This document shows, piece by piece, positions 34,941 to 61,505 of a stretch of DNA of 64,000 bases. The notes under the pieces are model-generated. The model saw only the letters and a list, made by a program, of their open reading frames with translations. It searched no databases and was not told the DNA's origin. This stretch comes from Eledone cirrhosa (lineage: Eukaryota), in NCBI GenBank assembly GCA_964016885.1, contig OZ024762.1:806001-870000 (forward strand). Direction: 5' to 3'. The position numbers were made by a program, and so were the translations under genes. Positions within the stretch are counted from its first letter, which is position 1, and each line of letters opens with the position of its first letter.

Positions 34941-35657
34941 TTATTCCTGTAAATCCTTTAAACGGTTAATAACATGGGATTTTTTACTTTGTTGGGTAGC
35001 ATCCATTCTAAACCAACTCTCCGATTTATTTGGAAATTTTAATGACTGTTTTTCTTGTTTATGTCCCAGTTTTACATTTTCATTCACACAGTTTTGTTGT
35101 GGCTTTCGGTATTTTGTGTTTAGATTTGGCAACGTTAGTCTTTCTTTGTCACAAAATATGTCTTTGTTTACTTTAAAACATTTTAATTTTTCAGTCCCAT
35201 GCTCTGATCCCTGGTTTATATCTTGCCAAGGTCCTAAATTATTATCCTTCATTAGTTTTAAGTTTAAATCTCTCAACTCTTTTATCAATTCAAGTAAATG
35301 GTTTAATAGTTGTCTCGTAGTGAGTTCTTCGCTGCTAAAAGTCATACTTTCTTGTCGGGATGAATATATATTTAGTAGAATTTCTAAAACAGAATCTTTG
35401 ATTTTTTTACACTTTTTATGTTCCTTATCGAGTTGTTTTAAAACTGCCTTCAGTTTAGCTTGCCAATTATTTCTTTCAATTTGAAGACACAAACAGAACC
35501 TCTTCTCTAGTTCTTCATAAGGACTGCTCACAAGAACAGACTGGGTTCTCTTTAAAATATCAGGGTCGATGTGCCGTATTGGGGGCATCAGTTTACAACA
35601 TTCTGTCTTCTTTGTTCCTTTGTTTTTCAGTTTTGTTCCTTCAGAAATTCTTTTCAT
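34941..35657 (-). CDS. Nested antisense gene A, 238-aa uncharacterised coiled-coil protein (single coding exon)
   Basis: Non-repetitive ORF from caccATG (MKRISEG..); polypyrimidine/AG acceptor about 21 nt upstream (exon starts 35678); homologous to 40475-41653. Confidence 0.75.
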   Translation of the reverse strand: MKRISEGTKLKNKGTKKTECCKLMPPIRHIDPDILKRTQSVLVSSPYEELEKRFCLCLQIERNNWQAKLKAVLKQLDKEHKKCKKIKDSVLEILLNIYSSRQESMTFSSEELTTRQLLNHLLELIKELRDLNLKLMKDNNLGPWQDINQGSEHGTEKLKCFKVNKDIFCDKERLTLPNLNTKYRKPQQNCVNENVKLGHKQEKQSLKFPNKSESWFRMDATQQSKKSHVINRLKDLQE

Positions 35658-35829
35658 GGTGAGATTTAGAGAAATTATCTTTATTAAAAAATAGAGAGAG
35701 AGAAATAGAGAAAGGTTAATAGGTATTGTTCTCAAAATAAATAATATCAAAATCTCATAGATTCGATATTATGTGAGGTAAAGCCTTTACTGTGAAAATA
35801 CAATAGTATATATAGAGTAATGTAAATGT

Positions 35830-40474: not shown

Positions 40475-41653
40475 TCATGTTGATAATCTTCTGGCCCTTA
40501 TTAGTTTAATAGGGGGAAGATTATATTGAGCTTTGATTGTATTAACTAGGGGCTCATCTGTAGGGACACTACACTCCCTAATTGCTGTATATTCACTGTT
40601 AGGGGTCATTTTGGTAAACCTCATCATAGTTTCATTCAGGTTTACTTGGTTACTTACAAGAAACATTTTACCATTTTTATCAGTTTGTGTATTATTATGG
40701 CAGCCCAGTGATTCTTGTGACTCTGCTTCTTTTAAACCCTCACAAGAAGTGACATTTTTAAGGGAGCTGTTACATTCCGATCCTGTTTGGAATCTACTTG
40801 TTTGATGCCTGTTTCTAACTCTCCCATTGTTGTTGTTGTTGCTGTTAGCTAACATTGAATTTATTGCGGCTGTTGTTGAATCGATGGAATATTTGTTGTA
40901 TTTTTTAATAAAAGCACTTTTAGGATTAGAATTTGGGTTTGGATTAGATTCTTTCTGGATTTTATTGGTTGTAATCGAACTGGAATAAAGAAACATCCTT
41001 TGGAAATTCTCTTTATCTTTTTTAAGTTCCGATATAATCGAACGTAATTCTTGTTCCTGTTTCATCGCTTCTGACTGAACTTGTTTGGCTGATTGTAGTT
41101 CCCTCTCTAGGAACTGGTGTATACATTCAACAAGGTTGACCTTCATGTCAGGTTTTCTCTCCACCAAACAAAGACACTGCAAACGTTCTTGGATCAAAAA
41201 CTGCAATAATTCAGTCAAGAGATCGACATATTCTATAAAAACATTTTTCTTCTTATTTACCGAGAATGCTTGTTTTGAATAATTAATGGAACACGTCTCA
41301 AGACAGTTCAGTAAAGCTTCTAGGCTGTCTGTGAGGATTTTATCTGCAATTAATGCCTCCTTTCGATAGATCTCTATCTCCTTCAGTGCTGTTTGGAGTT
41401 TAGACTGCCAGCCTTGACGTTCATATTGTATTTGGGCGGTAAGCCACTTGGAAAGTTCAAATGCACTGCGGCGCCAATACTGCCCTTGTAGACCTCGTCC
41501 TGTGGTCTGCATAAACTGGTTAACTCGAGCTTGTATGTCACTGTCAGGTTTTGTGGTGCTAGCTGGTTGTAATATTGGTTGTTCCTGTAGAGCGGAGTAA
41601 CCATCTTTCTTCACACCATTGTTCCCATACTGTGATGGTATCTTCTCAGTCAT
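40475..41653 (-). CDS. Nested antisense gene B, 392-aa uncharacterised coiled-coil protein (single coding exon)
   Basis: 1179-nt non-repetitive ORF; acceptor tatttccag with exon starting 41712; shares the QxERxxWQxKL motif with gene A. Confidence 0.85.
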   Translation of the reverse strand: MTEKIPSQYGNNGVKKDGYSALQEQPILQPASTTKPDSDIQARVNQFMQTTGRGLQGQYWRRSAFELSKWLTAQIQYERQGWQSKLQTALKEIEIYRKEALIADKILTDSLEALLNCLETCSINYSKQAFSVNKKKNVFIEYVDLLTELLQFLIQERLQCLCLVERKPDMKVNLVECIHQFLERELQSAKQVQSEAMKQEQELRSIISELKKDKENFQRMFLYSSSITTNKIQKESNPNPNSNPKSAFIKKYNKYSIDSTTAAINSMLANSNNNNNGRVRNRHQTSRFQTGSECNSSLKNVTSCEGLKEAESQESLGCHNNTQTDKNGKMFLVSNQVNLNETMMRFTKMTPNSEYTAIRECSVPTDEPLVNTIKAQYNLPPIKLIRARRLST

Positions 41654-41882
41654 GCCTCACTGATCTCTTCTCCTTAATATTGGGGCTTCTTCTTCTTCTA
41701 CAATCATATCTTCTGGAAATAGACAAATAACTACGTTAGATTGTAAACAGGGAACTCACACACACACACACAAACATACGCCCACAAACATACATTCAGT
41801 TTTTTCCCTTCAAACTACTGGAGTTTATACACATTTATGAAGCTAGTTGAAGATATGTATATATATATATATATATATACAT

Positions 41883-59492: not shown

Positions 59493-60589
59493 CCATGATA
59501 ATTGAAGCCAAATTATTGGTTAGTATAAAACATGTAGAGAAGATATCTTCAACATATAGCTGTAACTATGTATATGTCTAGTTCCTTATAAGATGTATAT
59601 ATAAATGTAGCTTTAGTTTTATTAGACAATGTATGTATATATAAATGATAGAATGCCTTCATTTCAGCTCTCTGAATTCAAATCCTGCCAGGGCCAACTT
59701 TGCCTTTCACCTATTCGAGGTCGATAAAAAAGTACCAGGGTCGATCTTCCTCTATGCTTCTCTGGAAGAAACCTGCTGTATTCTGACCTGGGTTCTGTCA
59801 GGTTTTAAAAAGTGTTAATCCTGCGATAAATCAGCGTTCTGTCCAGTACTTTCAGAAACTTAACGCCAAGTAAACCAGTGATAACCTTAGAACAGACTTA
59901 ACTTTATATTTCCTTATACAGATCTGTCTAAGGTTATGTTACCATCTTGAAGTAAGTATATTTACCTACATGTTAATTGTTCTGAATAGAGGAATCAGTC
60001 TTCTCCATTCTCCTCTATGGAGCAGAAACGTGGCCCCTCACAAAGATGATTGCCAGTAGAGCCCTAATGACCATGAAATACATCAGATGTGACCACTACG
60101 TTTCCAACAAAGTGGACATGTCCTCTTTTCACCAAATCACCCTATCAAGCCCTTAGTCTCGTTCAATGCAGTGATTCCGCACCAGAGGCTAGACATCACC
60201 TTGGAGGATGCACGAGACCGCTGGTGGACCTGGTTGGCTCTACCCACGGTGATACTTTGAGATCGCTGGCTTAGGATGACCCCAGCCTCGTCAAGCAAGA
60301 ATAATAGATGTACAAAATTGTAGGAGTTGCTCAGAGAAACCTTATTTACATAGAATTTGAAGTTGCTGAAAATATTGATAAGTCGACCCCCTTTTATTCG
60401 TGTGTATCCTGTTATATATGTACAAAATACTAGTAGATACCACGTTATATTTATATATATAGAAACGGAAAGAAAGCGAGATAACACTCGGAATATGTCC
60501 TGTTATCTCGCTTTCTTTCCGTTTCTTTTTTTTTTAAAAAGAAAGAAAATGTTAGCTATAAGTATGACTATTTGACTCTGTAGAATTGC

Positions 60590-60751
60590 GGCTTGTGCGT
60601 GGCGCTGCACGTAGCGTTTCTGGCTTCGCTGTCGTACTTCGGTATGGCTGACCACTCGATCGTGTCTGAAGTTGGAATCGTTGCGGGGTCGGCCGGGACC
60701 GTTGCAGGCTGGCTTTATGCTGGCCTGCTCTCCCGCCTCGCATGAGTTTTT
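60590..60751 (+). ncRNA. Candidate structured Pol III small RNA, family unassigned
   Basis: GC-rich island; 5' and 3' ends pair (13 bp + 1 mismatch); cUUCGg hairpin; 10-bp GU-containing hairpin; TATAAG at about -30; T5 terminator directly after the closing stem. Confidence 0.55.
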
Positions 60752-60764
60752 GCCAAAAAATTCG

Positions 60765-60850
60765 ATGAGTTATCTCCCCTGAATTGAATTATTTGCCCTT
60801 TGTTGACATTGAGCTACTTCCGGTTTGTGGAAATCTACTTCCGTTGTTGT
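60765..60850. promoter_or_regulatory. Probable promoter with two ETS-like ACTTCCG sites
   Basis: tacttccggt (~60816) and tacttccgtt (~60836) next to a CpG-rich stretch; GAGTTATCTCCCCT motif at 60767. Confidence 0.4.
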
Positions 60851-60947
60851 CATTTCTCTTCAATGTATTGAAGAAGTAACATCGTTTTATTTACTCTGGG
60901 ACTATTACTGACATTGGTTTGGATCTTACTTTCGTGTTGAGAGGTTT

Positions 60948-61505
60948 GTAGAGTTCTATTTTAATACATTGCTACCATATACACACCTAACCTTCTCCAT
61001 TATATACACTCACTCCTGTAAACAGTGTAGAGTTCTATTTTAATACATTGCTACCATATACACACCTAACCTTCTCCATTATATACACTCACTCCTGTAA
61101 ACAGTGTAGAGTTCTATTTTAATACATTGCTACCATATACACATCTAACCTTCTCCATTATATACACTCTCTCCTGTAAACAGTGTAGAGTTCTATTTTA
61201 ATACATTGCTACCATATACACACCTAACCTTCTCCATTATATACACTCTCTCCTGTAAACAGTGTAGAGTTCTATTTTAATACATTGCTACCATATACAC
61301 ACCTAACCTTCTCCATTATATACACTCACTCCTGTAAACAGTGTAGAGTTCTATTTTAATACGTTGCTACCATATACACACCTAACCTTCTCCATTATAT
61401 ACACTCACTCCTGTAAACAATGTAGAGTTCTATTTTAATACGTTGCTACCATATACACACCTAACCTTCTCCATTATATACACTCACTCCTGTAAACAAT
61501 GTAGA
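60948..61505. repeat. 79-bp minisatellite, 7 copies; a ~32-bp array follows at 61695-61890
   Basis: gtagagttctattttaatacattgctaccatatacacacctaaccttctccattatatacactcactcctgtaaacagt. Confidence 0.95.

Follow-up and report, generated by a model that had tools for sequence, protein, structure and literature searches.

The lineage-specific, repeat-derived Pol III RNAs of which we have read, namely 4.5SH, 4.5SI, snaR and BC1/BC200, are all mammalian, and some of them are functional. In the accessible part of PMC7279448, a layout that combines a TATA-like box with an A box and a B box is described for the 4.5SH, 4.5SI, 7SL and EBER genes, and the TATA-like box of the 4.5SH and 4.5SI genes is placed at −31/−24. 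Excerpts of two further papers ascribe the long life of 4.5SI to its paired ends (PMC3440375) and report that snaR is bound by the double-stranded-RNA-binding motifs of NF90 (PMC2094060). Here we describe a candidate of this kind from Eledone cirrhosa, located in a stretch of 64,000 nucleotides (hereafter the window, whose numbering is used throughout). Judging from its letters, the feature at 60588..60751 can be taken as a real structured element with Pol III-type signals, and it likely represents a family of lineage-specific Pol III RNA genes, of the same kind as 4.5SI and snaR. The reading that we favour, with a probability of roughly 0.6, is that of a multicopy Pol III family whose RNA, of about 164 nt, would be a closed, G.U-rich rod with a head derived from tRNA-Arg/Trp or from a SINE, and in which the youngest subfamily, type I, is kept by selection on RNA structure.

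Anatomy, promoter and predicted fold of the window copy

The transcript is predicted to lie on the + strand and to span about 164 nt (60588..60751), with +1 deduced from the spacing to the TATA-like box and G60590 as an alternative start. The TATAAG to which the first-pass annotation had drawn attention is indeed present at 60557-60562, within a TATA-like box at 60557..60564, and so is the T5 terminator, at 60747-60751. Taking G60588 as +1 places the TATA-like box at −31/−24, the A box (60600..60610) at +13 and the B box (60671..60679) at +84, all on the + strand. The A box agrees at 8/11 positions with the consensus TRGYnnARBGG, as given in the available sections of PMC7279448, whereas the B box reads GTTGGAATC in this copy and GTTCGAATC in the family. 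The gene is embedded in a cassette of about 570 bp with fuzzy ends (60391..60961, + strand), which travels with each copy examined.

The predicted RNA is poor in A (17 in 164 nt), and 14/62 of its pairs are G.U. Its ends are closed by a stem whose 5′ strand (60590..60603) faces 60735-60748, with 60590-599 paired to 60739-748 and 60601-603 to 60735-737; inside this stem there are a long G.U-rich rod (60610..60685), bearing a UUCG hairpin at 60631-648, and a 3′ hairpin of 10 bp (60704..60728), the stems of which are identical in the type I copy L023 and in the majority sequence of the older type III subfamily. Except for the rod, these elements had all been proposed by eye, and they are recovered in the predicted fold. 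Two further hairpins proposed with them, CGAU..AUCG (60657-680) and GGUC/GACC (60687-700), are absent from it; the bases concerned go instead into a single rod, in which 60610-628 pairs with 60667-685. The + strand of the window copy folds at −77.4 kcal/mol, with a z of −4.39 equalled by 0/200 shuffles, versus a z of −2.80 equalled by 1/200 shuffles for the − strand; in these models the strand preference of the fold appears real, but not absolute. The earlier view that the pairing works only on the + strand holds to the extent that this strand does better, but the − strand folds too.

Upstream of the gene, and 30 bp before the TATA box, lies a perfect 26-bp inverted repeat with a 14-nt loop (60461..60526, no strand assigned), followed by a T run. 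It is imperfect in the older type III copies and lost in type II; having given only sub-threshold generic hairpin matches, and changing faster than the gene, it was rejected as a microRNA precursor. On the other side of the gene, the window (60810-60955) and the corresponding region of other copies contain CTACTTCCGG motifs, presumably ETS-like, and many other copies show, about 180-200 bp after the terminator, GAG/GTATGT, which we take to be splice-donor-like. These downstream motifs may correspond to a Pol II promoter and a first exon carried in the cassette. A 79-bp minisatellite in about 7 copies (60947-61505) starts inside the right end of the cassette and is restricted to the window's clade of copies. 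Elsewhere in the window, two long open frames of 275 and 393 aa are found on the − strand (34941-35768 and 40475-41656, respectively); they share, by eye, a similar coiled-coil-like stretch, and are possibly paralogous exons or retrocopies.

The B box of the window copy departs from that of the family at one base. In each of two alignments GTTCGAATC is found in 29/29 other copies, and G60674, at the position equivalent to C56, is private to the window copy, the other 29/29 having C; moreover, the contigs from 4/4 sequencing runs have only C at 60674, bearing in mind that contigs drop rare variants. G60674 thus reflects either an allele private to this copy or an error in the assembly. The weak B-box-like motif that had been noticed at 60671 does exist, but the family has a canonical B box and the weakness is private to this copy. 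The combination of an A box near +12 with a B box of the form GTTCRANNC is consequently lacking in the window copy, owing to G60674, and is found in type I copies, in which the A box fits at 8/11 positions and the B box is intact, at +84/85, in 67/69 copies, a count that is inflated as the copies were picked on the motif. TATAA is intact in 67/69 type I and 28/28 type II copies, and the A-box TGGC in 69/69 type I copies; the terminator is T4 or more in 69/69 of the latter, and T5 or more in 64/69. Variability within the gene is lowest in the first 33 nt and in the B-box region. On these motifs, a type 2 Pol III promoter (A box and B box) with a TATA-like box is predicted for the family.

According to the accessible parts of two papers, the C56G change abolishes the TFIIIC-dependent targeting of TRE5-A in Dictyostelium (PMC5391098), and changing the TTC of box B brings the transcription of 4.5SI down to 20% (PMC10137851). 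By analogy with these effects, the window copy is likely weak or silent and, being mutated at an invariant C of the B box, it is a poor representative of its family. As regards the sequencing runs, none of those listed is an RNA run, which is evidence in neither direction; four of the five listed were compared, and the contigs of X1, X3 and X4, of unspecified type, cover the gene and its flanks. Run X5 (organism B) gave a single contig of 151 nt, which lies over 60592-60734 and leaves the flanks uncovered; at 60655-60703 it carries the substitutions of a paralogue (L183) of the window's own genome. This contig, also of unspecified type, shows neither a foreign orthologue nor a transcript, and on its own it amounts to less than a hint. 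A metagenome scan with a 24-nt core gave 0 matches.

Copies, subfamilies and origin of the family

In the genome, of 3.0 Gb, a 19-nt core of the gene has 160 exact matches, 80 per strand, versus 0 for the reversed control, which is a lower bound on the number of copies; a stricter 25-mer has 111 exact matches. In each of the DNA searches 40 copies were scored, out of 92 to 315 candidates. The family sits on the smaller chromosomes, with no exact core match on C1-C7 (the sorted list begins at C8), and often in inverted pairs. Many copies form convergent inverted pairs, mostly 5-11 kb apart, which enclose unrelated micro- or minisatellites and lie within larger inverted duplications, the identity of which reaches 99.9%. 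The approximately 570 bp common to the copies include the TATA box, the 26-bp inverted repeat and 200 bp downstream, and the same cassette is found in unrelated flanks. Neither a terminal inverted repeat nor a target duplication was found at 14 arm ends and in 20 copies, the ends of which vary. Since the copies carry the TATA box and flanks, they spread as DNA and not as SINE-type retrocopies. Of the high-copy, SINE-like distribution that the first-pass annotation had named as an argument against its own proposal, the multicopy state is thus observed, but the retained upstream DNA is not SINE-like. A SINE was in fact rejected on the structure of the copies, given the TATA region and downstream flank that they have in common and a number of exact core matches that does not reach thousands. 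A non-autonomous DNA transposon of the MITE, foldback or Helitron type was also rejected for the lack of fixed termini, terminal inverted repeat and target duplication, degenerate termini being possible.

The 112 distinct sequences collected were sorted into 76 type I, 28 type II and 8 old ones. Type I, of 164 nt, is the subfamily of the window. Type II, of 149 nt, is identical to type I at 129/148 aligned bases and is often located 1.4-1.9 kb upstream of a type I copy, while type III is older and dispersed, with a majority sequence of 194 nt that is identical to type I at 124/160 positions. Seven of the 76 type I sequences were dropped, being chimeric or unrelated in one flank; among the 69 kept, 9 carry deletions of at least 10 nt within the gene. 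In one of the old copies (L139, C23:2218040 region) the 3′ tail of the genome's abundant SINE stands in place of the 5′ end; this tail resembles the family's own −5..+12 stretch.

Comparison with Rfam, which had been suggested as a check, left the element without a match to a known family. At the gathering score no match was obtained in the whole window; at E<=10, neither the window copy nor a copy with an intact B box matched U11, vault, tRNA (RF00005), 7SK, SRP or Y, and at E<=1 an old copy matched no known small RNA family. The likeness to U11 noted on first inspection was abandoned on this result, and, to our knowledge, the 5′ splice-site-binding end and the Sm site of U11 are absent. Vault RNA was rejected as well: with 49 candidates scored, RF00006 reached its cut-off only at a separate cluster on C3 and at none of the loci of the family, so that the term "vault-like" does not stand as a statement of membership. 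Four copies compared between this cluster and the family gave z of 2.7, −0.2, 0.1 and 0.2, that is, little likeness. The cluster itself (C3:221183987-221251257, L171-L178) is a tandem one, with 14 RF00006 matches of 34-43 bits, above the Rfam cut-off; it comprises at least two sequence types, and T-tracts were seen in the four copies inspected. A literature search on octopus and vault RNA returned no description of it, and it is possibly an unannotated mollusc vault RNA cluster. Finally, a tRNA was rejected, as ARAGORN called 0 tRNA genes for the window element, RF00005 did not match and the acceptor-equivalent strands do not pair; as far as its sequence tells, the element is no longer a tRNA.

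A resemblance to tRNAs and SINEs is nevertheless perceptible in the rod 60610..60685, which constitutes a tRNA/SINE-like head whose anticodon region is enlarged by about 30 bases. A gapped pattern combining three pieces of this head (the D-arm, the T-loop and the 3′ acceptor-like part), selected after the fact with a Trp likeness already in mind, matched 45 tRNA-Trp(CCA)-type loci or close variants, with 0 matches for the controls, and ARAGORN called Trp at the anchor gene in 4/4 loci scanned. When the head profile was compared with 49 targets, tRNA-Arg(ACG) and tRNA-Trp(CCA) ranked top, few isotypes being represented among the targets; the tRNA head scores were 4-5 bits (best 5.2), versus a 99th percentile of 3.4 and a maximum of 7.9 for the null. 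The abundant SINE of the genome has the same layout, with about 10 nt ahead of the A box and a spacer that is lengthened in the anticodon region; its head gives a nearly gap-free alignment with that of the family (z up to 3.5 versus shuffles). One SINE variant that lacks the insert matches the tRNA-Arg pattern, and the RNA shares a 9-nt word with the tail of the SINE. These likenesses suggest that the family likely arose from a tRNA-Arg/Trp-type head or from a SINE built on it, an origin that is statistically weak. Among the tRNA-related loci of this genome, we also observed a tandem array (C4:353394859-353486313) with 34 tRNA-Trp(CCA)-type matches about 2 kb apart, and dispersed tRNA-like sequences on C1-C5 and C28 (L145, L147-L155) having one shared body and differing anticodons, for which ARAGORN calls Val, Ala, Thr and Asp; the latter are likely a tRNA-derived repeat that inflates tRNA counts.

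Constraint on the type I RNA and rival explanations

Changes in the gene were counted by parsimony and compared with those expected from the rates of the flanks, matched for CpG, other G/C and A/T sites. The type I gene (69 copies) has 110 changes versus 221 expected, a ratio of 0.50 that must be read with caution, since gene conversion between almost identical paralogues may imitate a reduced rate and leaves the trees approximate; for +1..+33 the ratio is 0.19. The type II gene (28 copies) has 66 changes versus 62 expected, with a ratio of 1.07. Leaving out the window's clade and two old loci, the type I ratio is 0.60 (59 copies), and for the 32 type I copies found without a gene-body query it is 0.79 (p 0.024) or 0.88 (p 0.14), with +1..+33 alone clearly low in these same copies (0.41-0.46).

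The distribution of the changes over the fold is more informative on what is kept. In type I, 37 changes fall on 110 paired sites (0.34 per site) versus 32 on 30 unpaired ones (1.07), a contrast exceeded by 0/139 circular shifts of the pairing mask, the fold having been predicted from the consensus of the same copies used for these pairing tests. Pairs are kept by 18 changes and broken by 10 (neutral share 0.36, p 0.002). In G-C pairs we counted 9 C>T changes, which lead to U.G, versus 0 G>A changes, which would lead to A.C; the flanks lean to C>T too, and the corrected p for this bias is 0.015. The rare variants show 5 C>T versus 0 G>A, with a p of 0.098 for the paired/unpaired contrast when taken alone. 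Neither type II nor type III displays these effects. In type II the corresponding figures are 44/107 for paired (0.41) and 22/38 for unpaired sites (0.58), a contrast exceeded by 25/144 circular shifts, with 9 C>T versus 8 G>A at G-C pairs, and 12 pairs kept versus 27 broken. In type III there are 1.01 versus 0.81 alternative bases per paired and unpaired site, respectively; its majority sequence nevertheless folds well (z −3.5), and 9/62 type I pairs are broken in it. RNAalifold detected two-sided change in 0/41 pairs among 15 copies; between type I and the type III majority there are two two-sided U-A/C-G changes, one of them in the closing stem.

On balance, the pattern of substitutions suggests that type I is under constraint at the level of its + strand RNA, and that the family evolves by birth and death, with type III decayed, type II drifting and type I maintained. 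We dropped the idea that type II is dead through an A in its B box, since the older subfamily carries the same A, and functional Pol III genes with an A in this position exist; the drift of type II rests on rates, not on this base. What had been proposed from one copy, a new structured Pol III RNA that is specific to its lineage and selected at the RNA level, gains support from the motifs kept in the family and from the strand-specific, pair-preserving change in type I.

The main rival to a structure-selected RNA is that the gene is a selfish or neutral passenger, namely a Pol III cassette in a non-autonomous DNA element or in a duplication-prone segment, in which the apparent constraint would come from gene conversion or from selection acting on a few source copies, without any function for the host. 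A passenger would agree with subfamilies that succeed each other, the old ones decaying regardless of pairing (as type III) or being neutral (as type II), and also with a cassette found in unrelated flanks and in recurring inverted pairs, with the upstream hairpin and with 48-bp subrepeats. We consider it unlikely, since the cassette is without fixed ends, terminal inverted repeat or target duplication, no transposase-like long frame was noticed, by eye, between the arms, where unrelated micro- or minisatellites are enclosed, and conversion predicts no strand-specific G.U preference, such as that seen also in the rare variants. The low variability of the first 33 nt and of the B-box region, together with the ETS-like CTACTTCCGG and the donor-like GTATGT after the terminator in many copies, could be explained by an element working at the DNA level, with boxes bound by TFIIIC, or a GC-rich module of the Pol II promoter type, as insulator or promoter and the fold incidental. 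It is improbable, as change is pair-preserving and strand-specific, the ends are closed and a T-tract comes right after the 3′ strand.

The near gap-free alignment with the head of the abundant SINE, and the word in common with its tail, could also indicate a SINE source (master) gene or an aborted SINE, whose RNA would be made for retrotransposition. This is even more improbable: the examined copies carry the upstream TATA region and the downstream flank, three old copies with different upstream DNA have a TATA-like run at about the same place, the element is without an A-rich or simple-repeat tail, and its copies are hundreds, not many thousands. The shared ancestry with the SINE head, plausible as it is, brings to mind the mouse 4.5SH RNA, which, in the portion of PMC10137851 available, has hundreds of genes and pairs with antisense SINE copies in pre-mRNA, blocking exonization. 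That the family works in the same way is very improbable, as the duplex with an antisense SINE copy reaches a z of −2.2, with a longest shared word of 9 nt (one SINE copy), and the RNA is locked in its own fold. The least credible explanation is that these copies are a diverged branch of a family already known (vault, U11, 7SK, Y, SRP or a tRNA with an intron): vault RNAs, too, have a type 2 promoter with upstream elements (PMC7279448, accessible part), but none of these families matched in Rfam at E<=10, the vault model recognises a separate cluster and no tRNA is called by ARAGORN.

Proposed function and comparison with known systems

For the maintained type I genes we propose that TFIIIC would bind boxes A and B, that the −31/−24 box would position TFIIIB, and that Pol III would start near G60588 and stop in the T-tract. 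The paired ends would then give a long-lived RNA, as in 4.5SI, and, as the acceptor strands are unpaired, the tRNA shape would no longer be used, but only its promoter. By analogy with snaR and NF90, we tentatively suggest that the RNA might be an abundant, stable, A-poor imperfect duplex that binds or buffers double-stranded-RNA-binding proteins. A more specific version, in which a cephalopod-specific, VA-RNA-like buffer of about 75 to 100 genes would occupy ADAR or other dsRNA sensors and tune the very high RNA editing, its dose being raised by repeated inverted duplication, seems to us doubtful.

No description of the family was found in the literature searched, which lay outside subscription journals, Repbase, Dfam, SINEBase and supplements; an anonymous entry for it may exist in a repeat library, and as an RNA gene family it is probably undescribed. 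An RNA of such size without poly(A) would be missed by poly(A) and microRNA libraries, which could explain the lack of annotation. If our reading is true, a structure-selected family of about 75 or more maintained copies would extend this class of RNAs to a mollusc, and would come with built-in controls, namely a drifting sister subfamily and a natural B-box mutant.

In size and shape the family recalls the VA and EBER RNAs, which are about 160-170 nt long, have closed ends and bind dsRNA-binding proteins. The adenovirus VA and EBV EBER genes have, as predicted here, type 2 Pol III promoters (PMC7279448, in the part available), but they are viral, whereas the family has no Rfam match and no viral gene was noticed around its copies. 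With vault RNA (RF00006) it has in common internal A and B boxes, paired ends and a multicopy cluster, but not a match to the model. Among cephalopods, Ohshima and Okada reportedly described in 1994 the octopus tRNA-derived SINEs OK, OR1 and OR2, with a tRNA-type head; the family likely has a head of this type, but, unlike these SINEs, its copies keep upstream promoter DNA and the terminator. The abundant SINE of the window's genome, not tied to a named SINE family, has a head with a long A-B spacer and the same layout as the family.

Among the mammalian RNAs, the available sections of PMC7279448 describe for rodent 4.5SH hundreds of genes in multi-kb repeats, with a TATA-like box and A and B boxes, as in our family. 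On the other hand, 4.5SH has a clear similarity to SINE B1, is without paired ends and is arranged in tandem, while the copies described here are inverted and their SINE likeness is too low for convincing antisense pairing. Rodent 4.5SI is similar in its type 2 promoter with a TATA-like box at −31/−24 and complementary ends, and probably also in its tRNA/SINE-related head and narrow lineage (PMC7279448, PMC3440375 and PMC10137851, accessible parts). It differs in being 98 nt long and having three genes, compared with about 164 nt predicted here and some 75 type I copies or more, and in an A-B spacer of 32 bp versus about 59 bp here, so that the likeness is by layout, not by sequence. Finally, the great-ape snaR, as described in the available parts of PMC3045588 and PMC2094060, resembles the family, as predicted here, in being a set of highly structured, SINE-derived Pol III RNAs that multiplied through segmental duplications into inverted arrays of many copies and whose subfamilies turn over fast; snaR, however, is Alu/7SL-derived, about 117 nt long and short-lived, with NF90 shown as its partner, whereas the head found here is likely of the tRNA type.
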